DNA of 64,000 nt. Origin: an uncultured Pelagibacteraceae bacterium (GTDB lineage Bacteria > Pseudomonadota > Alphaproteobacteria > Pelagibacterales > AG-422-B15). Made by a program: the position numbers and the translations under genes. The notes below the pieces were generated by a model. The model saw nothing but the letters and a program-made list of their open reading frames with translations, made no database searches and had not been told where the DNA came from. The stretch spans positions 68,135-132,134 of the forward strand of contig CACDOH010000001.1 of assembly GCA_902554325.1 (NCBI GenBank), read 5' to 3'. Positions 32,557-64,000 of this stretch are shown one piece after another (position 1 is the stretch's first letter; every line of letters starts with the position of its first letter).

Positions 32557-32631
32557 TGGTGGGCACGGTTGGGATCGAACCAACAACCCCCACGATGTCA
32601 ACGTGATGCTCTACCACTGAGCTACGTGCCC
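32557..32631 (-). tRNA. tRNA-Val (anticodon GAC), CCA encoded
   Basis: Reverse complement: GGGCACGTAGCTCAGTGGTAGAGCATCACGTTGACATCGTGGGGGTTGTTGGTTCGATCCCAACCGTGCCCACCA. It folds as a cloverleaf: 7-bp acceptor stem, GCTC/GAGC D stem, TCACG/CGTGG anticodon stem, loop TTGACAT and T loop TTCGATC. Confidence 0.93.
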
Positions 32632-37633: not shown

Positions 37634-38911
37634 TTATGAATTAGATTGGTTTATTGGGTAGACTTTCTGTAAATAAAAACCAACTGGCAAATAATAAATA
37701 ATATTGATCCAATTATTGAATAAGTTTTGGGATGGAAAAAATGGCCACAAAGTTAAAAGGAAGCATGCAATCAGAGCTATCTCATAGTCAGTGAGTGTAT
37801 TTTTAGATAAAATAATTTTATTATAAAGATGCACTAATATTTTTTGAGATAGGTAAATCAATAAAAATAAGATGAAACCTAATCCGACTATTCCTATTTC
37901 TGATAAGGCTTGAATATAGTTATTATGAGGGTGCGTACTACAACTGTTATCATTGAATTTATATTTATGATTACTACACAATACTCTGTAAAGTTTTGGC
38001 CCATGACCAAATAGAGGCTTATCTTTAAACATATTTATCGCAGTCATAATTAATGGATGGTGCCCCGGACTAAAGATTACATTTGTATTATCAACTTCAT
38101 CATTTGAGGGATTAGTAATTTTGCTTGTCATTTGATTAATAGTACCTTCAATATTTCTCTCTCTAATATCTGGAGATAAAATAGTAATGATACTTATAAT
38201 TATTATAGAAACAATTAATGCAAATAATCTTAATAACTTGTATTCATTAATTACGAGAATTAAAAATATTGAAGCAAGAGTTAAGAGACCAAATGAGGTT
38301 CTTTCACCTGAAAGATAGACAAGGGTGTCTATAAATATAAAAGTGAAAAATAAATAAATGAGTTTTAATCTCGTGTTATTGAATGAATAAATCACAACTG
38401 CAAATAATAGTGGGAAGACTCGTGCTAAAAAGCTTCCTAAGGTTAAATTGTCGTTAAATGTTAATGACATTCTTGTACCGGGACTTTCAAAGCCAAATAT
38501 ATTGTTGCTATTATTAAAATATTGATAATAACCATCTGTAATTGCAATCAATAAAGTGATTATTAGAAATAAAGAAAATTCTCTAATAAAATTCTTTTTA
38601 TTTACTATCAGAAACCAAGTAGCTAATGCAAAAAGTCCAAACCTAAAGTAGAACAGTGAGCTTTCAAGTGATAAATAGGGATTTTCAGAAAAAAAAGATC
38701 TTAAAATAAGGTAAATATAAAAGAGTAAAAAGAATTTTGAAAAATTATTATTATAATATAACCAGTCTTTTTCCTTTATGGAATAAAATAAAAAAATTAA
38801 AATTATTAAAAGTAATATGATCTCTGGAATAAGGGGGCCAGTTAATAAACTAATCGGTAGTAAATAATATATAGTTGATGAAAAATTTATTAATAATTTT
38901 TTATCAATCAT
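37634..38911 (-). CDS. O-antigen ligase family (Wzy_C domain) membrane protein: WaaL- or PglL-type
   Basis: 425 aa with ~10-12 TM helices. Periplasmic loop carries 'HPHNNYIQALSEIGIVG', typical of WaaL/PglL/PilO. Confidence 0.75.
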   Translation of the reverse strand: MIDKKLLINFSSTIYYLLPISLLTGPLIPEIILLLIILIFLFYSIKEKDWLYYNNNFSKFFLLFYIYLILRSFFSENPYLSLESSLFYFRFGLFALATWFLIVNKKNFIREFSLFLIITLLIAITDGYYQYFNNSNNIFGFESPGTRMSLTFNDNLTLGSFLARVFPLLFAVVIYSFNNTRLKLIYLFFTFIFIDTLVYLSGERTSFGLLTLASIFLILVINEYKLLRLFALIVSIIIISIITILSPDIRERNIEGTINQMTSKITNPSNDEVDNTNVIFSPGHHPLIMTAINMFKDKPLFGHGPKLYRVLCSNHKYKFNDNSCSTHPHNNYIQALSEIGIVGLGFILFLLIYLSQKILVHLYNKIILSKNTLTDYEIALIACFLLTLWPFFPSQNLFNNWINIIYYLPVGFYLQKVYPINQSNS

Positions 38912-38914
38912 TTA

Positions 38915-39433
38915 TTAAATAGATTTTTTTTCGAGAAGTTTTATTTTTTTTTTCCAATTTTTATATTTTCCCCAGTCATCTTGACTAATGATATAGCCTA
39001 TACATTTTTTTGATCCACACTCACAAATGTGATCAGTGAAATCTTCTTTGTCAAATTCATATCCATAGTCGTATGTAAATTCTTCACCTATTTTTATTTT
39101 CTTTATAGAAGAAATCCATATCTTCCCTTTTATAATATCTACCTCACAATTAGGATTGCATGAATGATTTATAAAGCGAGCTTTATTGTATGAATATGAA
39201 CCATCGATATCGTATCTTGAATTAAGCTCAAAAATATATACTGATCCTGTTTCTTTAGAATTTAAGTATTTTTTTATTCTTCTTTCTGACCTTTTATCTC
39301 CTTCTTTTTTTGTAACTTTTTGACCAATATACTCAATAATTCTTGTACCTTTTGCAATATTTTGTGTTGCAAATACACCCGTGCCGTGAATTTTTGAGGT
39401 CTTTACCATCCATATCTTTTTATTATTCTGCAT
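38915..39433 (-). CDS. SET-domain protein-lysine methyltransferase
   Basis: 172 aa. 'GTGVFA', 'RFINHSCNPNC', 'EEFTYDYGYEF' and post-SET 'CECGSKKCIG'. Confidence 0.85.
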   Translation of the reverse strand: MQNNKKIWMVKTSKIHGTGVFATQNIAKGTRIIEYIGQKVTKKEGDKRSERRIKKYLNSKETGSVYIFELNSRYDIDGSYSYNKARFINHSCNPNCEVDIIKGKIWISSIKKIKIGEEFTYDYGYEFDKEDFTDHICECGSKKCIGYIISQDDWGKYKNWKKKIKLLEKKSI

Positions 39434-39581: not shown

Positions 39582-40745
39582 ATGAAAATTGCTTGTATAG
39601 GAGCTGGATATGTTGGTTTTTCGCTATCAGTTCTGCTATCTAAATATCATTCATTAAAAATTTATGATGTCGACAGTAAGAAAACTAAATTAATTAATAA
39701 TAATCTTTCACCCATTCAAGATAAAGAAATAAGTAAATATATAAAAAATAATAAAACAAATTATATAGCATGCGACTCACTGAATGAAGCAATATTTAAT
39801 GCAGAGTACATTATAATTGCAACACCAACTGACTATAATGAAAAAACAAATGCATTTGATACGTCCTCAGTAATACAATCATTAAAAACAATTATACGTT
39901 CAAAAAGTAAAGCAAATATTATAATAAAATCAACAGTGCCTGTAGGTTTTACAGAAAGAATGAAACAAAAACTTAAATATAAAAAGATATTTTTTTCTCC
40001 TGAATTCTTAAGAGAAGGTATTTCTTTGTCAGATAATATGAATCCCTCTAGGATAGTTATAGGGTCGACAATGCAGGAAGGCAAAAAATTTGGGAAATTG
40101 CTCCAACAAATATGTAAAAATAAAGCTCAAGTACTTTATATGAGTTCTAGTGAAGCAGAGGCAGTAAAATTATTTTCAAATAGCTTTTTGGCAATGAGAA
40201 TTGCTTTTTTTAATGAACTTGATAGCTTTTCCATTGCAAACAATATTGAAACAAAAAAAATCATAAAGGGTGTTTCTCTTGATCATAGAATTGGTGACTA
40301 CTACAATAATCCATCATTTGGGTATGGAGGGTATTGTTTGCCCAAAGATACAAAACAATTACTCTCTAATTATGAGAAAGTTCCAAATAATATTATTAGA
40401 GCAATAGTTGATGCTAACAGAACAAGAAAAGACTTTGTATCAGATCATATTTTGTCTTTAAAGCCAAAAAATATTGGAATCTATAGATTAACAATGAAAA
40501 ATAAATCTTCAAATATAAAATCAAGCGCAATACAAGGGATTATGAAAAGAATTAAATCAAAAGGAATAAAGATAACTATTTATGAACCTTTGATTAATGC
40601 AAAAAAATTCTTCAATTCAAAAATAGAAAAAGACTTAAAAAAATTTAAACAAGAATGTGACCTTATTATTGCAAATAGAAATCATAGAGATTTAAATTCT
40701 GTTAAAGAAAAAGTATATACGAGAGACTTATTTAGAATTAATTAA
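39582..40745 (+). CDS. ugd: UDP-glucose 6-dehydrogenase
   Basis: 387 aa. 'MKIACIGAGYVG', 'FSPEFLREG' and 'GYGGYCLPKD' catalytic Cys. Confidence 0.85.
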   Translation: MKIACIGAGYVGFSLSVLLSKYHSLKIYDVDSKKTKLINNNLSPIQDKEISKYIKNNKTNYIACDSLNEAIFNAEYIIIATPTDYNEKTNAFDTSSVIQSLKTIIRSKSKANIIIKSTVPVGFTERMKQKLKYKKIFFSPEFLREGISLSDNMNPSRIVIGSTMQEGKKFGKLLQQICKNKAQVLYMSSSEAEAVKLFSNSFLAMRIAFFNELDSFSIANNIETKKIIKGVSLDHRIGDYYNNPSFGYGGYCLPKDTKQLLSNYEKVPNNIIRAIVDANRTRKDFVSDHILSLKPKNIGIYRLTMKNKSSNIKSSAIQGIMKRIKSKGIKITIYEPLINAKKFFNSKIEKDLKKFKQECDLIIANRNHRDLNSVKEKVYTRDLFRIN

Positions 40746-51815: not shown

Positions 51816-52603
51816 AATAATTTTTGAGCTATTGCATATCCTCTTTGTTCAGAAATTTCTATATGCTTAATTGAATATTCTTTTTTTTTCTTAACTTCTT
51901 CAATAGCTTTTACTACGCCAGGAAATAAGTTCACCGTTACATCATCAAAAACGATAATATCCCCTTTTTTTTGTTTATTTCTAACATAATTAAATTCACT
52001 TATTACTTCTTTATAGTTATGAACTGCGTCTAAGAAAGCAAAATGAAATCGTTCTATTTCTAGGTTTTTAAATATCGTTTTAGACTTACCCTCATAAAAC
52101 CTTATATTTTTAACTTCATTTTCCCAATAACTTAGCAACTCTTTTCTAGTTTTTTTGGAGTCCAGATCATCAATACAATTCCAGTATATATTCTTATTAT
52201 GTGGGATAATATCACAAGTATGAATTAAACCTTTTTTACCAATATCATTTATTGCTTTTGACATACAAATTGAAGAAAATCCTCTTGCAGTCCCTGTTTC
52301 AATAATATTTACACTGTTGCATGAATTATCATGAATATATTTAGATAATGTCGCGTACAATATCCGACCATGTTGATAATTGAGTCTAGATTTTTTTATA
52401 CAAATCTGTGTATGTAATGCTAAATTTTCAAAATAATCTCGATCTATTTTGAATCCACTTGACTCTTCAAACTTATCTATAACGCTAAATTTTTCTAATT
52501 TGCAATCTTCATGTAAAGCAAGGTATTCTTCTCTTGTTGCAAGTGGTCTATATGTAATGTAAGAAAATCTCTTTTTTAGTTTATTATAGAACCTATTAAT
52601 CAT
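51812..52603 (-). CDS. Class I SAM-dependent methyltransferase-like protein
   Basis: 263 aa. 'IIETGTARGFSS' motif-I-like and 'FAFLDAVH' motif. Weak call. Confidence 0.55.
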   Translation of the reverse strand: MINRFYNKLKKRFSYITYRPLATREEYLALHEDCKLEKFSVIDKFEESSGFKIDRDYFENLALHTQICIKKSRLNYQHGRILYATLSKYIHDNSCNSVNIIETGTARGFSSICMSKAINDIGKKGLIHTCDIIPHNKNIYWNCIDDLDSKKTRKELLSYWENEVKNIRFYEGKSKTIFKNLEIERFHFAFLDAVHNYKEVISEFNYVRNKQKKGDIIVFDDVTVNLFPGVVKAIEEVKKKKEYSIKHIEISEQRGYAIAQKLL

Positions 52604-53696
52604 TAATGAACCCTTTCATAAATAATTGCCACAACTTCATTTGAGCAGCATAAGAATTATCTTCAGCAGTTTTTCTAGCGTTCTTAAGTATACTCTGAAT
52701 CGAATCCATTCTATTAATTACATCTAATGAACAATCAGTTAATCCAGCTACATCTCCAATATCGATAAGCCAGCCATTAGCATCGTTCTCTATAAGATCA
52801 ACGGCTTGACCAACCTTAGTAGATATAATAGGAACTCCAATTGCCATAGATTCAAGAACAGCTCTTGGTCCACCTTCCTCTCTTGAAGTTACTAAATATA
52901 AGTCCAACGCGTTATAAAGTTTAGAAATATCAATATAATTTTTTAGATATATGTGAGTAAATTCAACATTTATTTTTGATAATTCTTCTTTTACATATCC
53001 TCTTGACGGTCCACTTAAAAGTACATGAATTTTTTTATTTTTTTGACTTAAGTTTTTTATTGTCTTTATAAATATATCAGGACCTTTTATTAATTTTGGT
53101 ATATTTCCCTCACCCCAACCATCAGAGTCTTTTTGAAAAGATCCAATAACAACAGCATCCTCAGGAATTCTTAGTTCTTTTCTACTGTTAATTTTATCTA
53201 AACTATTTCTATAAGGAAAAAACTCTAAATCAATGCTAATAGGAATACGAAACACTTTAGATGCGTCAATTCTTGTATCTAAAATTCTATTTTTCATATG
53301 CAAATTAGAAACTTGTATTCGATTAATATATTCATGTTTATTTTTAAGTGTTTCAAACATTTCTTTAAATAAAACTGATTTGTGAGTTTCATAATTTTGA
53401 GGATCACCATGAAAGTATGATAACGCTATACGATGCTTCGGATTTTTCCAATTTAACAAAACTTCATACCTTGAAGTATAAAAAATACATTGATTTTTTG
53501 TTGTATATAAACTTCTAGATGGCAAAGTTTCTATATTTAATTTTTTACATAAATTATTCATTTCTTTTGCTATTGAAGATAATACCCAGTTATATCCATC
53601 TCCTCTTATTATCAACTTAGAATAAGGACTTAATTTCATTGATTTGATTCTATCAGAGATATAAAATTGGCTTAATATTCTCTCTTTGTTTAACAT
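52596..53696 (-). CDS. Glycosyltransferase family 4
   Basis: 366 aa. 'TSREEGGPRAVLESMAIGVPIISTKVG'. Confidence 0.7.
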   Translation of the reverse strand: MLNKERILSQFYISDRIKSMKLSPYSKLIIRGDGYNWVLSSIAKEMNNLCKKLNIETLPSRSLYTTKNQCIFYTSRYEVLLNWKNPKHRIALSYFHGDPQNYETHKSVLFKEMFETLKNKHEYINRIQVSNLHMKNRILDTRIDASKVFRIPISIDLEFFPYRNSLDKINSRKELRIPEDAVVIGSFQKDSDGWGEGNIPKLIKGPDIFIKTIKNLSQKNKKIHVLLSGPSRGYVKEELSKINVEFTHIYLKNYIDISKLYNALDLYLVTSREEGGPRAVLESMAIGVPIISTKVGQAVDLIENDANGWLIDIGDVAGLTDCSLDVINRMDSIQSILKNARKTAEDNSYAAQMKLWQLFMKGFIND

Positions 53697-53706
53697 TTAT
53701 TGTCGC

Positions 53707-54675
53707 TTATAAATTTAGATTACGAAATTTGTTCTCAATCATTTCATGCACAATTTTTTTAAGATTATAAGTTGATTTCCACTTAAGAATTTTCTTTGCT
53801 TTTTTGGTATTTCCTTTGTTACAAATTATATCTAGTGGTCGTTTTAATTTTTTATTTATTTTAACATGGTCCTTCCAATTCAAATCAAAATATTCAAATG
53901 CCAATTTAATAAAATCCTTTAATGGATATGATTTACCAGAAGCGATAACAAAGTCCGATGGATTTTTTTGCTGAATAATTAAATACATAGCCTCTACATA
54001 TTCAGGTGACCATCCCCAGTCCCTCTGGATATCAATTGAACCTAATTCAAGAAATTTTCTTTTCTTATTATATATGTCAATCACATTTGAGATAATCTTC
54101 TGAGTTACAAAACTTTTGCTTCTTATTGGAGACTCATGACTAAATAAGATTCCTGAAACTGCAAAAATATTATATGCTTCACGATAATTCTTAACTATGT
54201 AAAATGCAGAGGTCTTTGCAACTGCGTAAGGGCTTAAAGGATTAAATCCTGAAGTCTCGTCAACTAGTTTCTTTCCAGTATTTCCATAACATTCACTCGA
54301 ACATGCTGAAAAGAACTTTATATCAGCTTTTATATCATGAATGCTTTCTAAAATATTTATAGTACTATTTACGATGCTAATATAAGTTGCAGCTGGATAT
54401 TTAAAAGATTTTGCAACCGAACTTATCCCTGAAAGATGGTAAATCTCATCAGGTTTTATCTTTTTAATTAATCTTCTAGTAGCATTAATATCGTCTAAAT
54501 TACATTGGAAGATTTTACAGGAATTTTTAATATTTAATGTGTATAAATTTTTTAAATTTGACTTTTTTTTATTTCTAGTAATTCCAAATATAATATAATT
54601 TTTTTTTAACAAAAAATTAGCTAGATAGGATCCATCCTGACCCGAAATTCCTGTTATGAGTGCCTTCTTTATCAT
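53707..54675 (-). CDS. Divergent GDP-mannose 4,6-dehydratase-type SDR (second Gmd paralogue; dehydratase or reductase)
   Basis: 322 aa. '[15 protein letters not shown]', 'SPYAVAKTSAFY' (YxxxK) and 'GILFSHESPIRSKSFVTQKI', compared with the canonical 'NHESPRRG'. Confidence 0.75.
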   Translation of the reverse strand: MIKKALITGISGQDGSYLANFLLKKNYIIFGITRNKKKSNLKNLYTLNIKNSCKIFQCNLDDINATRRLIKKIKPDEIYHLSGISSVAKSFKYPAATYISIVNSTINILESIHDIKADIKFFSACSSECYGNTGKKLVDETSGFNPLSPYAVAKTSAFYIVKNYREAYNIFAVSGILFSHESPIRSKSFVTQKIISNVIDIYNKKRKFLELGSIDIQRDWGWSPEYVEAMYLIIQQKNPSDFVIASGKSYPLKDFIKLAFEYFDLNWKDHVKINKKLKRPLDIICNKGNTKKAKKILKWKSTYNLKKIVHEMIENKFRNLNL

Positions 54676-54680
54676 TTTAT

Positions 54681-55745
54681 TTATAAGTCTTTTCTAAATC
54701 TCATTATTTGATCTATAATAAATTTCCATCTAGTAAGATAAGTATTTTTTTCCCAAGTTTCTTGATCAATTGTCTTTTTCTTATTAGCTTTAATTATATT
54801 ACTTATTTCTTCAACAATTCCGCTAATATTCTCTGGGTCATTCTTGTAGAAACTACAGTTATCTTCATTTAACCCTAATTCCCTTATTTCTGGGCAGTCA
54901 AATGTAATCATGTTAGATCTAGCTCCAATACATCTATAAGTATCCCAATTTAATAGCCAGTTTGTATCTTCTAATTCTTTTCTGCTCATTCCCCAATTTA
55001 GATGAACTCCAGTTTCACCAAGCTCATGAAAAGGCAAATGTAATGAATATTTGCCAACTCTATAGTGTTTTGACTTTCCGAATTTATTTACAACTTTAAA
55101 ATTACTAAATATTTTTAACCCTTTTAGTAAATCAGCCTCAAAATGTTTATTAGTTCTACCATTATAATTTATTATTGAGTATCCCTTTTCTAATAAACCT
55201 AAAAGAATATCTCTTCTATGAGTCTTAGCTGTTAATCTTCTTGACCTATCCAAAGTACCATTAAAGACAATGTCATAACGAGTATTATTTGGTTCTTTAA
55301 TGCGAAAATTACCTTGAAATGCAAGTGGAGTATAAAAAACTTTATTTTTATTATTGTAAAATTGCCTTAATTCTCTATTGCTTTGTTCAAATATTATATC
55401 TGTATTTGCAAAAATATGATTTTCATTAACCCATTCCATTTGATTAAAAGACCATGTGTATTTATGAATATTTTTTTTATTTTGCAAAAAATTAATTGAG
55501 TCGCGAGTTAAACCTATAAAAATCACTCCATTATATTTATGATAATTTTTTAGAAACGAGTTAATATATGTTATATTAAATTTAATGTCTGTATTTTTGC
55601 AAACTTTACTTAAACAATATCTAGTGTGCAAATAGTCATGTTGGCTTCCATAAGCGTATGCATATTGACTATGCCAAGAAACCTTGGGTACAACAGCAAG
55701 CTTGTAAGTTTTATTGTTTGTAGTAAAAATCATTAATTCTCTCAC
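54681..55745 (-). CDS. Hypothetical protein (possibly CgeB/DUF3880-like glycosyltransferase)
   Basis: 354 aa, soluble, with no catalytic motif I can name. Overlaps the upstream aminotransferase 3' end by ~23-35 nt. Confidence 0.35.
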   Translation of the reverse strand: MRELMIFTTNNKTYKLAVVPKVSWHSQYAYAYGSQHDYLHTRYCLSKVCKNTDIKFNITYINSFLKNYHKYNGVIFIGLTRDSINFLQNKKNIHKYTWSFNQMEWVNENHIFANTDIIFEQSNRELRQFYNNKNKVFYTPLAFQGNFRIKEPNNTRYDIVFNGTLDRSRRLTAKTHRRDILLGLLEKGYSIINYNGRTNKHFEADLLKGLKIFSNFKVVNKFGKSKHYRVGKYSLHLPFHELGETGVHLNWGMSRKELEDTNWLLNWDTYRCIGARSNMITFDCPEIRELGLNEDNCSFYKNDPENISGIVEEISNIIKANKKKTIDQETWEKNTYLTRWKFIIDQIMRFRKDL

Positions 55746-56823
55746 ATATATTTTTAATATCAGTTTTTTTTAAATCTATTGAAGATGGCAACCACAATCC
55801 TTCTTTCGCTATCATTTCTGAAATTGGAAAATCCCCTCTACATTTATATATTTTCTGAGAATTAATTGATGGATACATTAATCTTGTATTTATGTTAAAA
55901 TTCTTAAGATACTTAACTAAATTTGTTCTATTTTTAGCAATAATCTCTACAAACCACGGTGCAGTATCCTTTAGAGGGTTATCTAATATTTGAATGTTTT
56001 TATTACACATTAGAAATTGTTTATATTTTCGAAAAATCATTTTCTTCTTAGAAATTCTAACTCTAATTTTTTTCATTTGCTCTATTCCAATTACAGCTTG
56101 AATATCGGTAAATTTAAAATTGAAGCCAAAAAAATCATGAACATCATTTCCTCCACTTCTTCTGCCAAAATCCTTTAGAAGCATAATCTTTTTTGCTAGT
56201 TTACTGCTATTAGTTACAATAGCTCCTCCCTGCCCAGTACTAATAATCTTAGCAGGCGAAAATGAAAAAGATCCAATATCTCCTTCAGTCCCCATATGGC
56301 TACCATTAGGATAAAATGAACCTAATGATTGCGCAGAATCTTCAATTAAAAAAATTTTTTTCTTCTTACATAAATTTCTTAATTTACTAATATCATATGA
56401 TGGATAGCGTCCATTTGCAGATACTAATACTATAGCTTTTGTTTTTTTTGTAATACTTGAAACAACCTTGTTATAATCTAAACATAAAGTTTTTTCTTCA
56501 ACGTCAACTAAAACAATTTTTGCACCCAATAACCTGAAGGCGTTAGGCGTTGCTATCATTGTAAAATTAGGAACAATAATTTCATCTCCATTTCCAATTC
56601 CACAAGCAAGACCTGCAACTAAAAGACTTACCGAGCCATTATTGACTAAAAAGCAGTATTTTGAACCTGTATAATTTCTAATCATACTTTCTAACTCTCT
56701 TGTTTTTTTGAACTCTGTAACCCAACCGCCTTCTTTCATATATTTGTTTAAAGCTACTCTCTCTTCCTTTCCAAAACTAGGTTCAAACTGTGAAATTGAT
56801 TTATATTTAATATTTTTTTTCAT
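55711..56823 (-). CDS. DegT/DnrJ/EryC1/StrS-family PLP sugar aminotransferase
   Basis: 370 aa. 'EDSAQSLG' and 'FSFSPAKIISTGQGGAI' (PLP-Lys). Confidence 0.88.
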   Translation of the reverse strand: MKKNIKYKSISQFEPSFGKEERVALNKYMKEGGWVTEFKKTRELESMIRNYTGSKYCFLVNNGSVSLLVAGLACGIGNGDEIIVPNFTMIATPNAFRLLGAKIVLVDVEEKTLCLDYNKVVSSITKKTKAIVLVSANGRYPSYDISKLRNLCKKKKIFLIEDSAQSLGSFYPNGSHMGTEGDIGSFSFSPAKIISTGQGGAIVTNSSKLAKKIMLLKDFGRRSGGNDVHDFFGFNFKFTDIQAVIGIEQMKKIRVRISKKKMIFRKYKQFLMCNKNIQILDNPLKDTAPWFVEIIAKNRTNLVKYLKNFNINTRLMYPSINSQKIYKCRGDFPISEMIAKEGLWLPSSIDLKKTDIKNICERINDFYYKQ

Positions 56824-56830
56824 ATTTTTA

Positions 56831-57376
56831 TTACTTTATTGCTGAAATATTTAAACTAATCAATATACCATCTTGATCTAGATGAGGTACGTATGCTTTA
56901 CTATAATCATCAAACTCTTCTCCAAATTCTTCTAATGGATTAAATTTCTCAATATTTTTAAAGTTTATACTTTCTAATAAATTCTTAAGTAATTTAAAAT
57001 CATAAGCTGTTTTATGATAAATAAAGTCGCCATTATCTAGAGACCATTTACCATATAAAGGTCCTAATATGCCTCTATGATTAAGATCATTATATTTTAA
57101 GTACACTTTTACTATTGACTCAAAGTTTGGGACAGCAAGTAACAGAGTGCCGCCAATTTTTAATACTCTTCTCCACTCAGTCAAAACTAAGACCGCTTCC
57201 TCCTGATTAAAATATTCTAACGTATGAGAAGAATATATTTTATCTACGGAGCCGTTTTCAAACATAGATAAATTTTTAACATCACATTTATAATCTATGT
57301 GTGGTCCATCATTAACATCAATATGTAGATAATCTTTTAAATACTTTTCACCACAACCTAAGTGAATTTTTATCAT
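56831..57376 (-). CDS. Class I SAM-dependent methyltransferase (Methyltransf_11-like)
   Basis: 181 aa. 'IHLGCGEKYL', 'VDKIYSSHTLEYF' and 'LKIGGTLLLAVP'. Confidence 0.7.
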   Translation of the reverse strand: MIKIHLGCGEKYLKDYLHIDVNDGPHIDYKCDVKNLSMFENGSVDKIYSSHTLEYFNQEEAVLVLTEWRRVLKIGGTLLLAVPNFESIVKVYLKYNDLNHRGILGPLYGKWSLDNGDFIYHKTAYDFKLLKNLLESINFKNIEKFNPLEEFGEEFDDYSKAYVPHLDQDGILISLNISAIK

Positions 57377-57377
57377 A

Positions 57378-57776
57378 TTAAAATTTCTTCTTATCTTTAT
57401 CTACATCGGTAAATGGGCCATTTTTTGACTCAATTATTTTAGTATTATTTTCTAAAATTTCATATCCATGCCCACCATAGGCAAATACAGCTAGGTCACC
57501 CTCATATAATACAAACTCATCAAAAAAATTTTGTTCTTCATCAAATAATGTAACCTTCATGGATCCTGATTTCACATAAGTCATTTCCATTGTACGGTTT
57601 GCAATTCTTTGAAATTCGTTATGTAAATGAGAATCAAGAATTTTTCCTTTTTGATACCACCAGGATCCAACTTGTATACTAAGTTCATTGGGTGTAATAA
57701 AATTTAAACCTTCCTTCCAATCATTATTCCTATAAATAATACTAAATATTTTGTTGTCTTTTTTTATTATCTGCAC
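57378..57776 (-). CDS. Small cupin protein (FdtA/WxcM-sized; candidate sugar ketoisomerase)
   Basis: 132 aa. Cupin-like 'DSHLHNEF' and 'GGHGYEI' motifs. Its stop abuts the next gene's start. Confidence 0.5.
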   Translation of the reverse strand: MQIIKKDNKIFSIIYRNNDWKEGLNFITPNELSIQVGSWWYQKGKILDSHLHNEFQRIANRTMEMTYVKSGSMKVTLFDEEQNFFDEFVLYEGDLAVFAYGGHGYEILENNTKIIESKNGPFTDVDKDKKKF

Positions 57777-58313
57777 TCACTTATCCCTGTCATTTAGTAT
57801 TGGATCATCAATTAACCAATCAATTTCTAATCTACTGTCATTCCATTTTACTACAAATTGATCTTCTACATCAAAATATTCTCCTATGTATGCTAATTTA
57901 TAATGATAAACTACATCATCACTTAAAGCGCAGTATCCATTCGCAAAATTAGGTGGAACAAGAATTACTGTTTGATTTTTATCATTAATTATAAATGATT
58001 CCCATTGCAGGTAAGTTTCTGACTCAGGCCTAAAGTCAACTACTACTTGTTGTATTTCTCCATAAACACAGGTAACCAGTTTCCATGTTTTAACATCCCC
58101 GTGTAAGCCCCTTAGAACATTTTTCTTTGAGCAGGAAAATTTATCGTGTATAAATTCTAAATCCTCAGGAAGATAATTTTTAAATTTTTCTTTTAAATAA
58201 GTAGTATAAATTGAACCTCGAAAATCATTGTAAACTGATAACTTAAATGCATGTAAGTCAGCAATTTTGTTTGGTTTTATAAGCTCTAGATCGCTAGATT
58301 GATCAAAAGACAT
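57777..58313 (-). CDS. RmlC-like NDP-4-keto-6-deoxy-sugar 3,5-epimerase
   Basis: 178 aa. 'D.RGS...TY', 'LRGLHGD' and 'PPNFANGYCALSD' follow the dTDP-4-dehydrorhamnose epimerase pattern. Confidence 0.75.
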   Translation of the reverse strand: MSFDQSSDLELIKPNKIADLHAFKLSVYNDFRGSIYTTYLKEKFKNYLPEDLEFIHDKFSCSKKNVLRGLHGDVKTWKLVTCVYGEIQQVVVDFRPESETYLQWESFIINDKNQTVILVPPNFANGYCALSDDVVYHYKLAYIGEYFDVEDQFVVKWNDSRLEIDWLIDDPILNDRDK

Positions 58314-58319
58314 ATTTTT

Positions 58320-59345
58320 TTATAAATTTTGTTTTATTTTTTCAAGATCTGATTTAACCATAATTGAAACTAAATCTTTAAATTTTGTTTTTGCTTCCCA
58401 ACCTAAGACTTTTTTGGATTTTGAAGGATCTCCTAATAAATAATCTACCTCAAGTGGTCTATAATAGTAAGGGTCAATCTTAATAATTTCTTTGTTTGTT
58501 TTTTTATCAACACCACACTCATCAATACCACTATTCTTCCAAATTACTTCAATCTCTACCTCCTTGAATGCGGCCTCAATAAACTCTCTAACTGAATGCA
58601 TTTCTCCCGTGGCAAGAATGTAGTCATCTGGTTTATCTTGTTGCAACATCTTCCACATTCCTTCAACATATTCAGGTGCGTATCCCCAATCTCTCTTTGC
58701 TTCCAAATTTCCTATATAAAGGACTTCTTCAATGCCTAATTTAATTTTAACTGCTGCAGTTGAAATTTTTTTAGTAACAAAAGACTCACCTCTTCGTGGA
58801 GATTCATGATTAAACAGTATGCCGTTTGTAGCATGTATATTGTAAGCATCTCGATAAGTAACAATAGACCAGTATGAAAATAATTTTGAAACAGCATATG
58901 GAGACCGAGGATTAAATGGTGTCTTTTCAGTTTGAGGAGATTCCAAAACTTTTCCGTAAAGTTCACTTGTGGAGGCTTGATAAAATTTAGAATTAATCCC
59001 AGTAGATTTGATTGCATCAAGAAACTTTAGTGTTCCAAGAGCATCAACATGGGTGGTATACTCTGGGATATCAAACGATACTCTAACATCACTTTGCGCA
59101 GCTAGATTGTAGATTTCGCTTGGCTCAACTTTTTCAAGAATTCTATTAAGGTTACTTGTATCTGTGATATCTCCATAATATGTCTTCAAATCATGATTGT
59201 TTATTATTTGAGATATTCTTGAGGTATTTAATGAACTGCTTCTTCTAATAATGCCATGTACTTCATAATTTTTTGAAAGAAGAAACTCGGCTAAATATGA
59301 ACCGTCTTGACCTGTAATACCAGTTATAAGCGCTTTTTTCTTCAT
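58320..59345 (-). CDS. gmd: GDP-mannose 4,6-dehydratase
   Basis: 341 aa. '[19 protein letters not shown]', '[12 protein letters not shown]' and '[20 protein letters not shown]'. Confidence 0.9.
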
Positions 59346-59375: not shown

Positions 59376-60044
59376 TTAATCAATCTTTTTTAGAATAATG
59401 AAGTAGCCAGTATTGATGTATAATTTACTTTTAGAAGAAAATCTATCGAGGAACCTAAATAAAAAACTAAAAATTAATAGAAGTCTAGATAAAAAAAAAC
59501 TCCCATTTAGATGAAAACTTGTTCTCAATAAATCGTATATTACTGAACTGGTTCCTCCCATTCTTATAAACTTTTCCAATTTTAAATTATAACTTTTAAA
59601 AGTTCTTTTTAAGAATGACTCTGTATATCTAATCTTATCAATATCTGCGTCTCCATGTATCGAATGAATTAATGGAACACTGATTATCATATAAGAATTA
59701 ATTTTTAATATTCTTGAAGCCTCTTTTAATACTTGATTTATATCTTCTACATATTCTAATAATTCCAACATCAATACTGTATCTACAGAACAATCCTTCA
59801 ATGGTAAATTATTAGCATCTGCTAAAATGTCAGGGTTAGATGAAGCATTATTATTTAAATATTGCCAAGTTAAAAATGTACAATCCTTATTAGAAAAAGA
59901 CCCACGCGGATTTTTTTTTATGCCACCAATGTCGATAACATTTCCCTTAATATAATTTTTACTTTGAAACAGTAATTTGTCTAAAATTCTCCTTCTTTCA
60001 CTGCCGTTATCAAAAAAAATCATAAAATTCTTCTTTGTTATCAT
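59376..60044 (-). CDS. Class I SAM-dependent methyltransferase
   Basis: 222 aa. 'VIDIGG' and 'DCSVDTVLMLELLEYVED' motifs. Confidence 0.65.
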   Translation of the reverse strand: MITKKNFMIFFDNGSERRRILDKLLFQSKNYIKGNVIDIGGIKKNPRGSFSNKDCTFLTWQYLNNNASSNPDILADANNLPLKDCSVDTVLMLELLEYVEDINQVLKEASRILKINSYMIISVPLIHSIHGDADIDKIRYTESFLKRTFKSYNLKLEKFIRMGGTSSVIYDLLRTSFHLNGSFFLSRLLLIFSFLFRFLDRFSSKSKLYINTGYFIILKKID

Positions 60045-60726
60045 CTAATATTTTTTTTAGCCATTTAACGCCATACAGTTTTATTTCTCTATCATGAAAA
60101 CAAACTTGATTCTTAGAATCGATAATTTTTAAATTATATTCATGTTTGATAGCATTATCTGCATTAATATATTTTATTCCGTTTTGATATGCTGCTTTGA
60201 TAGTTTTAAGACAATATACATTTCCAGGAGGAATTAGTATATTAACATCCTCTTCAAGCCAATCATCAAGAATTTGTTTTCCTTTTCTTATGTTTTCAAA
60301 ATGGAGTTCAAATGGAAGATAATCCCAAAATTCTCTATGATATTTTCTGTTTGAAGTAAATAATCTTGGTTTATGCTTTCCTACTATGCAATGTGTTAAC
60401 CCATGGAGGGCTACTTTAAATGAACCTTCTTTTACTTTATTTTTAATAAACATTGCCTCTTTAGGAAATTTAATTGGAAAAGGGGTTAGATTGGAATCTT
60501 TGTCTACCCAACAAGCAGTTACACCTATCAATAATTTTGCATTATACTTATTGATCAATAAAGATATATTTTTCCAGTCTTCTAAGGATAACTCAGAATA
60601 TTTTCCCCAAGCTTTGAAGTGTCGTAAATATTTAAGAAATAAAAAGTTTCCAAAACCAAAGTACTTTTTAGAATAAATTTCAAATTCTTTACTACTGGCA
60701 CCAATATCATCTATTCTTAATAACAT
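60010..60726 (-). CDS. Polysaccharide deacetylase-like (DUF2334-type) protein
   Basis: 238 aa. 'LLRIDDIG' start and 'ALHGLTH' motif resemble the divergent NodB/DUF2334 fold. Tentative. Confidence 0.5.
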   Translation of the reverse strand: MLLRIDDIGASSKEFEIYSKKYFGFGNFLFLKYLRHFKAWGKYSELSLEDWKNISLLINKYNAKLLIGVTACWVDKDSNLTPFPIKFPKEAMFIKNKVKEGSFKVALHGLTHCIVGKHKPRLFTSNRKYHREFWDYLPFELHFENIRKGKQILDDWLEEDVNILIPPGNVYCLKTIKAAYQNGIKYINADNAIKHEYNLKIIDSKNQVCFHDREIKLYGVKWLKKILDDNKEEFYDFF

Positions 60727-62629: not shown

Positions 62630-63460
62630 CTATGTGCTTTTTACAAAATATTTTTTATAATCTTTGTCGGGGTTAAAGCCAAAATCGGAACGTGGCAAGT
62701 TTTTGCCAGGTCTATAATAATTTGTAATAGAATGTCTATCTCCATCTTCAGCTGGAGATATACCGCAGTGAACACCCCAGGTGTCAAATAATATAAGAGC
62801 ACCCTTATTTGCAGTTATTTTTACCCAATTATTAATTAAGGGACCCAGTTCATTTCTAGTAAAATTAGTTGGATGAGGCTTAAAAGTATTATCAAAATCA
62901 TCTCCTACACTTGGCCCCCAATCAAATTCTTTTTTTCTTCTTAATTCAGTGTCTTTATGAGTACCAATAATATATGAATTAGGCCCATCATTAGAATTAA
63001 CATCATTTAAATACATCATTGCCTTGAACGTTGATGTTTCAAAAGTGTCAATATGGAATCCTCTTACTGGTATATGATAAAATTGATGTCTTTCATAAAC
63101 CTGAACATGGACTGAATATTCATTATTATTATTGTAGTATGCTTTTGCAATATTTTTTAAAAATTCGTCATTCTTAAGTATTGCTGCTTCATAATTAAAG
63201 CAATCAACATGGAAAACTCTTTTGTTTGCCGCTGCGCCTGTATTCTTATACACGTCAAATCTTCTGTAAGATCCATCTGGATAGTTTAGGTCCTCATCAA
63301 CTTCAGCTCTTTCAATGCATGATCGTCTAATCGAATCACACTTTTCTTGATCATAATAGTTCTCAATGAGACAAATTCCATTATCTCTCAAACATCCCAA
63401 AATTTTTTTTGTATCTTTTGGCTGTGTAATGGTATTTATTAGTTGATGGTTTTTACTCAT
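62630..63460 (-). CDS. PhyH-like Fe(II)/2-oxoglutarate dioxygenase
   Basis: Start re-assigned to ATG 63460 (MSKNHQ...). 'GFHIDTF' (HxD) and a distal 'WGVHCG' His. TAATG overlap with the upstream gene. Confidence 0.6.
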   Translation of the reverse strand: MSKNHQLINTITQPKDTKKILGCLRDNGICLIENYYDQEKCDSIRRSCIERAEVDEDLNYPDGSYRRFDVYKNTGAAANKRVFHVDCFNYEAAILKNDEFLKNIAKAYYNNNNEYSVHVQVYERHQFYHIPVRGFHIDTFETSTFKAMMYLNDVNSNDGPNSYIIGTHKDTELRRKKEFDWGPSVGDDFDNTFKPHPTNFTRNELGPLINNWVKITANKGALILFDTWGVHCGISPAEDGDRHSITNYYRPGKNLPRSDFGFNPDKDYKKYFVKST

Positions 63461-64000
63461 TACTGGGTCTCCCACAGTGCTTCAGCTATCTTAAAATCAT
63501 CTTCAGTATCAACATCTAATAATTCAATTTTGTTTGATACCTCATAAAATTGCACTTCTTCCCAGTCCCAATATCTTCCGTTTTCAAAAAAGTATTTCTT
63601 TTCAAAGAAATACATTGCATTGGCGAATTCATAAATTGGTTTTGTTTTTTTTGTATTAAGTGTTTTTAAATTTAAAGAAAAGTTAATCGGTAATTTGTCT
63701 TTATTAAAAAAATAATTATTTTTTTTAGAAATTACAGTTGCAGGTTTAAAGTTATTTTTTTTTATAAAATCTAAAAATTTTTTTATTGTACTAATCTTTA
63801 AATGTGGAAGGCACCCATTAATTAATAATAAATAATCATAATCAACTTCTTTTATAAAAGAAATACACTCGGTAATTGGGCCATCAATCTTTGTAGATTT
63901 TTCTGACCTTCTAATAAATTTAACATTTTTTTTAATGCATTTTTCACGAAATACATCCTCAAAGCCTCCAAAAAAACTTTGATCATTAAAATTCGATAAT
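63460..64000 (-). CDS. Cytidylyltransferase (CMP-sugar synthetase/CTP_transf_3-like), 5'-truncated by the window edge (not in the ORF track)
   Basis: Hand translation ends ...LLLINGCLPHLK...YEFANAMYFFEKKYF...ELLDVDTEDDFKIAEALWETQ*. The C-terminal 'D.DT.EDF..AE' is typical of the family. Confidence 0.6.
   Translation of the reverse strand, partial: LSNFNDQSFFGGFEDVFREKCIKKNVKFIRRSEKSTKIDGPITECISFIKEVDYDYLLLINGCLPHLKISTIKKFLDFIKKNNFKPATVISKKNNYFFNKDKLPINFSLNLKTLNTKKTKPIYEFANAMYFFEKKYFFENGRYWDWEEVQFYEVSNKIELLDVDTEDDFKIAEALWETQ

Follow-up and report, generated by a model that had tools for sequence, protein, structure and literature searches.

A widespread GDP-sugar cassette with an uncharacterised cupin and a DegT-family aminotransferase in a Pelagibacteraceae polysaccharide island

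A portable nucleotide-sugar cassette

We analysed a stretch of 64,000 nucleotides (nt) from an uncultured Pelagibacteraceae bacterium (contig CACDOH010000001.1; this whole stretch is called the window below), in which a first-pass annotation had described a single tailoring module for sugars linked to guanosine diphosphate (GDP) at positions 53707-59345. This module is in fact made of two independently recurring units, A and B, which are transcribed together on the minus strand. Unit A (55711-59345) encodes, in this order, a canonical GDP-mannose 4,6-dehydratase (Gmd1), an RmlC-like GDP-sugar epimerase, a cupin of 132 amino acids (aa), a small methyltransferase and a DegT aminotransferase. Unit B (52596-55745) encodes a protein that had been called an "orphan", a second Gmd-type enzyme (Gmd2) and a GT4 transferase. 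We consider it probable, with fair confidence, that the product of unit A is a GDP-linked methylated amino-6-deoxyhexose that is epimerised or isomerised and is not perosamine, and that the trio of unit B is separate from this pathway.

The seven open reading frames (ORFs) between 53707 and 59345 were all confirmed. They are co-directional on the minus strand and tightly packed, with intergenic distances from -35 to +7 nt. As these ORFs are spaced by 0-7 nt or overlap, they therefore form one transcription unit with the flanking genes.

The distribution of unit A was established with a profile of the cupin, which was run against 185,579 species genomes; the neighbours of the matching genes were then classified by BLAST. 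The order Gmd, RmlC-like epimerase, cupin, variable slot and DegT was found in 36 genome loci (numbered with L below) from at least six phyla. The carriers belong to the Bacteroidota (including the cultured Butyricimonas muris), the Ignavibacteriales, the Alpha- and Gammaproteobacteria, the Bacteriovoracaceae, the Eubacteriales and the Cloacimonadota, and those from the proteobacteria include Pelagibacteraceae, Rhodobacterales, SAR86, Pseudothioglobus and Aliikangiella coralliicola. In addition, further metagenome contigs display the identical gene order. Most of the 36 loci have neither the orphan nor Gmd2. Unit A is a portable nucleotide-sugar cassette, which is widespread and not peculiar to this genome. 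The slot that precedes DegT is found in four states: it holds an acyltransferase with hexapeptide repeats (about 185 aa), a homologue of the 181-aa methyltransferase of the window, both of them (L050) or neither (L029 and L046).

As the first-pass annotation had proposed, the cassette does not correspond gene for gene to any characterised pathway, be it that of perosamine, colitose, D-rhamnose, fucose or 6-deoxyheptose; the epimerase and the cupin have no counterpart in the perosamine route. A review of 2022 reports that no enzyme is known to act as a 3,4-ketoisomerase on GDP-4-keto-6-deoxymannose, and counts this as a gap in mycosamine biosynthesis (PMC8944477). The searchable open-access literature, from which most subscription journals are missing, contained neither a later report of a GDP ketoisomerase nor a description of this gene combination. 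No E. coli O-antigen carrying the cassette was found either, when one was sought for its known glycan structure.

In the proposed pathway, Gmd1 would convert GDP-mannose into GDP-4-keto-6-deoxymannose, a step assigned because of its membership in an equivalog family. The RmlC-like enzyme would invert C3 and/or C5 beside the keto group; this epimerisation is proposed because of about 58% identity to characterised GDP-sugar epimerases and because the catalytic residues are conserved. The cupin may carry out a second proton-transfer rearrangement of the keto-sugar, which would be a 3,4-keto shift or else the epimerisation still to be done and would yield the substrate of DegT. DegT would put an amino group on C4 or C3 by transamination dependent on pyridoxal phosphate (PLP). 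The 181-aa enzyme would finally methylate the new amine or a hydroxyl, using S-adenosylmethionine (SAM). In unit B, the GT-B-fold protein and the GT4 enzyme presumably transfer sugars onto the growing glycan, while Gmd2 could be a second dehydratase or a Gmd-derived enzyme with a diverged role, e.g. 4-reduction to a D-rhamnose-type sugar, and would provide or alter a second GDP-6-deoxy sugar.

Two side observations concern the gene content of related loci. A conserved protein of about 250 aa without a Pfam family lies downstream of DegT in several acyltransferase-type cassettes, i.e. L007 (12072-12812), L023, L031, L042, L046 and L049; it directly follows DegT in L007, L023, L031 and L046 and is absent from the window. 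In L028 (6402-13192), a Bacteroidales metagenome-assembled genome, the genes for Gmd, epimerase and cupin are followed by those for a PPDK_N (ATP-binding) protein, a class II aldolase, an FGGY kinase and an Fe-alcohol dehydrogenase, and this front end may feed other downstream chemistry there.

The dehydratase and the epimerase

Gmd1 (58320-59345, minus strand), the first gene product of unit A, scores 527.8 bits against the equivalog model TIGR01472, above the cut-off of 415, and matches PF16363 at 3.4e-140. It has the RR-loop sequence IIRRSSS and the motif NHESPRRG, and its cassette orthologues across phyla are 54-61% identical. The next gene (57777-58313, minus strand) encodes the candidate GDP-4-keto-6-deoxyhexose C3 and/or C5 epimerase of 178 aa, which falls clearly in PF00908 (1.1e-42, 146 bits for a cut-off of 27). 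Its best solved relatives are the GDP-heptose 3- and 3,5-epimerases of Campylobacter jejuni (8dco, 8db5, 7an4 and 8dak), with E values of about 1e-55, whereas the RmlC enzymes acting on sugars linked to thymidine diphosphate (dTDP) match only at about 1e-24. Judged by this difference, the window epimerase belongs to the GDP-specific branch, and together with the equivalog score of Gmd1 this supports the earlier view that the gene set is GDP-linked. Moreover, the equivalents of the catalytic residues His67 and Lys74 are invariant in the cassette-type epimerases.

The epimerase is also informative on the length of the sugar. In the structures of DdahB and MlghB, Ile56 and His123 contact C7 of the heptose and its hydroxyl; the hexose enzyme RmlC carries Ser and Phe instead (PMC7949155). 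The window epimerase has Ser and Tyr there, and all 37 cassette-type sequences (the window included) have S, A or N at the first position and Y or F at the second one. These hexose-type residues, added to the equivalog-level match of Gmd1, strongly favour a 6-deoxyhexose over a heptose as the substrate.

At the position equivalent to His123 of DdahB (Tyr127 in the window), Tyr is mostly found in methyltransferase-type cassettes and Phe in acyltransferase-type ones. Behind this split there may be two co-evolving sub-lineages of cassettes, or a differing stereochemical outcome.

The aminotransferase and the variable slot

The DegT-family PLP sugar aminotransferase (55711-56823, minus strand; 370 aa) matches PF01041 at 5.9e-83 (279.5 bits). 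In NCBIfam it comes closest to two C4 enzymes, LegC (GDP-linked; 219 bits) and PseC, without reaching the cut-off of either model. Among the structures of the PDB, it matches QdtB, which acts at C3, at 1.4e-45, and GDP-perosamine synthase, which acts at C4, at 6.9e-43 (about 150 bits). Lys192, the Schiff-base lysine in the motif SFSPAK, is invariant in the cassette-type sequences (35 out of 35, window included), and because of this lysine the protein is a transaminase and not a 3-dehydratase of the ColD type. In the ColD structures of Cook and Holden, the active-site lysine is reportedly replaced by a histidine. A ColD-type 3-dehydratase, as in a colitose-like deoxygenation, was considered and ruled out on the invariant lysine of DegT and on the lack of a ColC gene, similar to GDP-fucose synthase (GFS), in the region.

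In the window, the variable slot is occupied by a class I SAM methyltransferase of 181 aa (56831-57376, minus strand; Methyltransf_11, 9e-08), for which the sequence search found no solved relative. Homologues in the identical slot are 57-77% identical within the lineage of the window and 44-52% identical outside it, where they come from Rhodobacterales, Pseudothioglobus, Methylophilaceae and the gammaproteobacterial single-cell genome SCGC AB-629-P17. They share the motifs LGCG/LGCW, SH..EYF and AVPDF. The acyltransferase that takes this place in sister cassettes matches AntD of Bacillus cereus, the anthrose N-acyltransferase (PDB 3vbi-3vbp), at 1.6e-35, and QdtC more weakly, at 1.8e-12. Kubiak and Holden reportedly showed in 2012 that AntD acylates the C4 amine. 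Because the methyltransferase occupies the slot that is filled by an N-acyltransferase in sister cassettes, it may methylate the new amine; O-methylation is equally possible.

An uncharacterised family of small cupins

The 132-aa cupin (57378-57776, minus strand) belongs to an uncharacterised family and is, from its gene coupling, a candidate GDP-keto-sugar isomerase or epimerase feeding the aminotransferase. It has no match to a Pfam family. Against the model of WbuC, a "cupin fold metalloprotein" (TIGR04366), it scores 27.2 bits, below the cut-off of 42, and all the close (35) and distant (10) members that were sampled match only this model, each below the cut-off as well (21-37 bits). A 139-aa protein encoded next to an FnlA-like gene in L006 was compared by profile as a possible link to WbuC, but it is not WbuC and the comparison gave no match. 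The FdtA family is not among the matches of 35 members at E<=10, which consist of generic cupin models only.

The AlphaFold2 (AF2) model of the cupin, with a predicted local distance difference test score (pLDDT) of 81, is a jelly-roll. Its only full-length Foldseek alignments are to the 3,4-ketoisomerases FdtD and WlaRB and to the RmlC-like WbcA, with template modelling (TM) scores of 0.41-0.49; metal cupins align with it over about 60 residues only. The invariant residues of the family are M1, H50, H52, E64 and H103, to which the motif GGHGY is added. With its single domain of 132 aa, its jelly-roll and its paired His-x-His (H50 and H52), the protein resembles FdtA and QdtA in size and motif. 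The first-pass annotation had described it as a cupin of FdtA/QdtA size; both the size and the predicted fold bear this out, but the protein matches no model of the FdtA family, and it is about as likely to be an epimerase as a ketoisomerase.

No other protein of the cassette is as conserved as the cupin, which retains about 70% identity between phyla. From 1.84 billion representative proteins, its profile retrieved 2148 clusters, 961 of them at E<=1e-10, and nearly all the proteins stand alone and have a length of 130-145 aa. Rare fusions exist: P0336 (530 aa) joins a nucleoside-diphosphate (NDP)-hexose C-methyltransferase (Methyltransf_13/23/14) to the cupin, and P0385 (237 aa, probably truncated) joins to it the C-terminal part of a short-chain dehydrogenase/reductase (SDR) similar to GDP-fucose synthase. 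These fusions tie the family to enzymes of NDP-keto-sugars. Furthermore, on plasmids from Bradyrhizobium, Caballeronia and Azospirillum, the gene of a cupin with only 28-35% identity directly precedes a DegT gene. No RmlC-like gene is annotated in the regions of 12-14 kb around these plasmid pairs, and the pair of Caballeronia adjoins gmd, fcl and manC. A cupin followed by an aminotransferase, in a GDP-mannose setting, is the invariant core of the genomic context of this cupin family.

A separate glycosyltransferase trio

Unit B is a separate conserved trio, which recurs without unit A. The first-pass annotation had counted the orphan and the second Gmd in one module with the genes of unit A; both instead belong with the GT4 gene, in a trio that is found elsewhere beside Gmd and a fucose-synthase-like gene. 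In the closest marine relatives of the window (L013-L017 and L027), the trio comes after the amino-sugar cassette. Elsewhere among the marine contigs, a canonical Gmd and a GDP-fucose-synthase-like SDR, rather than unit A, precede the Gmd2-GT4 pair; L059 and L060 keep a homologue of the orphan (45% identical and before the Gmd2 homologue in L059), and none was detected in L057 and L058.

The first gene of the trio (54681-55745, minus strand) encodes a putative, divergent glycosyltransferase of 354 aa with a predicted GT-B fold. Gene callers start it four codons later, which gives a probable true start at 55733 and a protein of 350 aa. It has no Pfam or NCBIfam match, but it is conserved and the name of orphan does not suit it: 29 homologues, 44-93% identical, were found, all of them in marine or other metagenomes. 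Its AF2 model (pLDDT 83) displays two Rossmann-like domains, and Foldseek aligns it with GT-B transferases: GlgM (6tvp, 2.6e-08, TM 0.62), but also sucrose-phosphate synthase, PimA, BshA and WaaC. The model thus points to a divergent glycosyltransferase.

Gmd2 (53707-54675, minus strand), the middle gene product, is a short SDR similar to GDP-mannose dehydratase (GMD), of a distinct subfamily. The earlier description of a second, divergent Gmd-type SDR holds for its family (PF16363, 2.8e-93), its motif SHESPIRS and its score against TIGR01472, which at 307 bits remains below 415; what does not hold is its place in the tailoring cassette. The homologues in L059 and L045 remain below this cut-off too (317 and 367 bits), as does the whole subfamily, of which SSEC[FY]G and NHESPLRP are the hallmarks. 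Gmd2 aligns end to end and without gaps with the short GMD of Pseudomonas aeruginosa (1rpn, 3e-67). It reaches 205-246 bits against GMDs, versus 125 bits (3e-35) against Rmd (2pk3) and 113 bits (1e-31) against the Campylobacter heptose dehydratase (7us5), and is therefore closer to GMD than to characterised Rmd. The motifs TGxxGQDGSYL, SSECYG and YxxxK (SPYAVAK) are retained; the RR loop (RRSS) is replaced, by TRNKKKS in the window and by GTSRD in most of the subfamily (P0121-P0240). The acidic residue at this position of the subfamily might confer a preference for NAD rather than NADP. Cyanobacterial members are named GDP-mannose 4,6-dehydratase by NCBI. Wherever its context was examined in a marine locus, Gmd2 was accompanied by a canonical Gmd, which suggests that its role is not redundant.

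The third gene (52596-53696, minus strand; Glycos_transf_1, 2.6e-20) encodes a GT4 glycosyltransferase and lies outside the module as first delimited. Its homologues, 50-54% identical, come after the Gmd2 homologues in L016, L027, L057 and L059.

Alternative explanations

Several observations weigh against the view that unit A makes an epimerised or isomerised amino-sugar. We infer the activity of the cupin wholly from gene coupling. Searches of the PDB with the cupin, by single sequence and by profile, gave noise (mainly oxalate decarboxylase, E of about 0.15-0.5) and no ketoisomerase, and the Foldseek matches of its model are weak, with E values of 0.03-0.1 and none below 0.03. L028 possesses Gmd, epimerase and cupin with no aminotransferase nearby. 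L050 carries both the acyltransferase and the methyltransferase, and these two enzymes therefore need not share a target. The indications on the site of amination do not settle between C3 and C4, LegC, PseC and AntD pointing to C4 and QdtB, the best characterised PDB match, to C3. Finally, all the checkable dehydratase catalytic residues are kept in Gmd2, which may therefore be a plain second dehydratase.

The role of the cupin can be read in two ways. In a sub-variant of our best explanation, which corresponds to the first-pass annotation and which we regard as a tentative possibility, the cupin is a GDP-4-keto-6-deoxyhexose 3,4-ketoisomerase with an FdtA/QdtA-like function and DegT aminates C3. 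This would give a mycosamine-like GDP-3-amino-3,6-dideoxyhexose, which may be epimerised and would be N- or O-methylated. The size shared with FdtA and QdtA, the invariant H-x-H pair (50 and 52), the full-length alignments restricted to FdtD, WlaRB and the RmlC-like WbcA, and the C3 activity of QdtB all agree with it. The cupin-DegT adjacency also persists without an RmlC-like gene, as expected if a ketoisomerase hands a labile 3-keto sugar to the transaminase, and a second epimerase is less needed where an RmlC-like enzyme is already there. However, the cupin lacks an FdtA-family match even at E<=10, WbuC is its sole recurrent family signal, and the closest named families of its partners (LegC, PseC and AntD) act at C4. 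The fusions, with an SDR reductase-like domain in one case and a C-methyltransferase in the other, suit an epimerase at least equally, and H50, H52 and H103 resemble a metal site, unlike FdtA and QdtA, which are reportedly metal-free in the structures of the Holden laboratory. The other reading is possible to a similar, tentative degree: the cupin would be a metal-dependent mono-epimerase complementing the RmlC-like enzyme, and DegT would aminate C4 to give a GDP-4-amino-4,6-dideoxyhexose, a stereoisomer of perosamine. The WbuC "cupin fold metalloprotein" signal and the invariance of three His and one Glu are in its favour, as is the position of DegT nearest to LegC and PseC and of the sister-cassette acyltransferase nearest to AntD. 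CapF offers a precedent, as its cupin domain is a Zn-dependent epimerase, which converts the product of CapE before CapF itself carries out its reduction (PMC5393024), and the SDR-cupin fusions mirror its architecture. Nevertheless, CapF is not among the top Foldseek matches of the cupin, every WbuC score is below the family cut-off, and the family does not conserve the classical cupin Glu located 3-4 residues past the second His, for which the window protein has Q. Two epimerases within a cassette of five genes would also be unusual.

Other explanations do without a new amino-sugar of this kind or start from another precursor. It is improbable that the genes make two known sugars, Gmd1 and DegT providing ordinary GDP-perosamine, and the epimerase with Gmd2 as a 4-reductase providing a GDP-6-deoxyhexose, the cupin being accessory or inactive. 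The match of DegT to GDP-perosamine synthase (6.9e-43) and the constant presence of Gmd2 alongside a canonical Gmd, suggesting a non-redundant role, would fit such a division. However, epimerase, cupin and DegT occur together in the 36 loci, mostly without Gmd2, Gmd2 scores up to 246 bits against true GMDs but only 125 bits against Rmd, and a protein better conserved than any other in the cassette (about 70% identity between phyla) is hard to reconcile with an inactive accessory. Very improbable is the heptose product that the first-pass annotation had left as an option, in which the cassette would use GDP-glycero-manno-heptose, like DdahA/DdahB or MlghB of Campylobacter, to make an amino-6-deoxyheptose. 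The resemblance of the epimerase to the C. jejuni heptose enzymes (about 58% identity) speaks for it. Against it, Gmd1 exceeds the equivalog threshold of the GDP-mannose dehydratases, the residues Ile56 and His123 are replaced in every cassette orthologue compared, and Gmd2 matches the heptose dehydratase 7us5 at 1e-31 only; in addition, the examined part of the window contains no genes for GDP-heptose synthesis, and a distant cupin-DegT locus has manC and gmd. A bolder combination, speculative and rather unlikely, takes the cupin as the founder of a new family (more than 2000 sequence clusters without a detectable FdtA/QdtA match) that supplies the missing GDP-4-keto-6-deoxyhexose 3,4-ketoisomerase, and Gmd2 as a Gmd-derived enzyme with a new role in the glycosyltransferase trio.

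Comparison with known pathways

The 6-deoxyheptose pathways of C. jejuni (DdahA/B/C and MlghB/C) resemble unit A in that an RmlC-like cupin epimerase acts after a GDP-linked 4,6-dehydratase. Unlike them, the window has hexose-type residues at positions 56 and 123 and no GFS-like C4 reductase (DdahC/MlghC), in the place of which are found the small cupin, the aminotransferase and the methyltransferase. The routes to dTDP-Fuc3NAc and dTDP-Qui3NAc (RmlB, FdtA/QdtA, FdtB/QdtB and FdtC/QdtC) also combine a 4,6-dehydratase, a cupin of about 135 aa, a DegT enzyme and an N-modifying enzyme. The latter is a left-handed beta-helix acyltransferase in the sister cassettes, while the window has a methyltransferase instead. 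The window further differs from these routes by its GDP linkage, its extra RmlC-like epimerase and its cupin without a match to the FdtA family. With a beginning like that of the Campylobacter GDP route and a succession of steps like that of the dTDP routes, unit A belongs to neither.

GDP-perosamine synthesis (Gmd and Per/RfbE, with or without PerB) and the proposed GDP-mycosamine route likewise start from GDP-mannose through Gmd and continue with a DegT-family transaminase. Perosamine, however, requires neither an epimerase nor a cupin, and the window DegT reaches only about 150 bits against perosamine synthase. Mycosamine synthesis requires a 3,4-keto shift, and the polyene and vancoresmycin clusters do not have a candidate 3,4-ketoisomerase gene (PMC8944477). 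CapF of Staphylococcus aureus (an SDR with a Zn-cupin) and the WbuC cupins of the L-FucNAc clusters resemble the window in placing a small, apparently metal-binding cupin after the dehydratase step, but these systems are linked to uridine diphosphate and couple the cupin to a reductase, whereas that of the window is coupled to an aminotransferase. With the anthrose pathway of Bacillus (AntC, AntD and 2-O-methylation), the likeness lies in the AntD-like acyltransferase of the sister cassettes and in the expected product, an acylated or methylated amino-6-deoxyhexose. Anthrose differs in that it derives from dTDP-glucose and needs no epimerase or cupin, and the window cassette has no acyltransferase.

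Genomic setting

The region that surrounds the cassette is a cell-surface polysaccharide island. From 37.6 to 64 kb, it has a GC content of about 27%, compared with about 33% upstream, and also encodes an O-antigen-ligase-like protein, sugar dehydrogenases, a PglF-like dehydratase, an initiating transferase, several GT4 enzymes, an AsnB-like amidotransferase, an EpsG-like polymerase, an ATP-binding cassette (ABC) exporter and a PhyH dioxygenase. The drop in GC from about 33% to about 26-27% takes place near 35-37 kb of the window, and a tRNA-Val gene is located at 32557-32631; together, they fit a boundary of a horizontally exchanged glycan island at about 32.5-37.6 kb. Identical gene fragments are present in Tara Oceans and other marine metagenomes, and the closest syntenic genome locus (L027) belongs to a Pelagibacteraceae single-cell genome. 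Housekeeping genes, among them those for RpoH, TolB, FtsH and transketolase, point to a proteobacterium.

A few neighbouring genes can be added. SET domains are uncommon in bacteria. A SET-domain protein of 172 aa (38915-39433, minus strand; PF00856, 2.3e-25) is nevertheless encoded inside the island, in an odd location between the O-antigen-ligase-like gene (37634-38911) and a gene of the UDP-glucose/GDP-mannose dehydrogenase family (39582-40745). Directly upstream of Gmd1 are the genes for a second small methyltransferase (Methyltransf_11; 59376-60044, minus strand) and for a DUF2334 / polysaccharide-deacetylase-like protein (60010-60726, minus strand), which overlap by 35 nt and have syntenic counterparts in L013, L016 and L027, all close marine relatives. 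Their products may modify the same sugar or glycan as the cassette. The PhyH-family dioxygenase lies at the edge of the cluster (62630-63475, minus strand). A PhyH gene also borders close relatives (L013, 517-1347) and adjoins the distant cupin-DegT pair on the Caballeronia plasmid (L056, 4587-5576); the protein could be a sugar- or glycan-modifying oxygenase associated with this pair.

Implications for surface glycans

The type of system described here is ordinary, i.e. a nucleotide-sugar tailoring operon in a glycan island, and it does not overturn the current understanding. What is new is an undescribed and widely distributed combination of enzymes, together with an uncharacterised cupin family tightly coupled to sugar aminotransferases. 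Few sugars derived from GDP-mannose are known (fucose, rhamnose, talose, colitose, perosamine, mycosamine and the 6-deoxyheptoses). The cassette points to at least one further GDP-linked amino-deoxysugar, carried by cultured and uncultured bacteria from oceans, sediments and guts. If the cupin is a ketoisomerase, GDP-linked 3-amino-3,6-dideoxyhexoses of the mycosamine type, here epimerised and methylated, would be common on the surfaces of marine and gut bacteria. For marine microbiology, the cassette suggests in concrete chemical terms what part of the hypervariable surface-glycan islands may encode; such islands are believed to influence how cells interact with phages and grazers.

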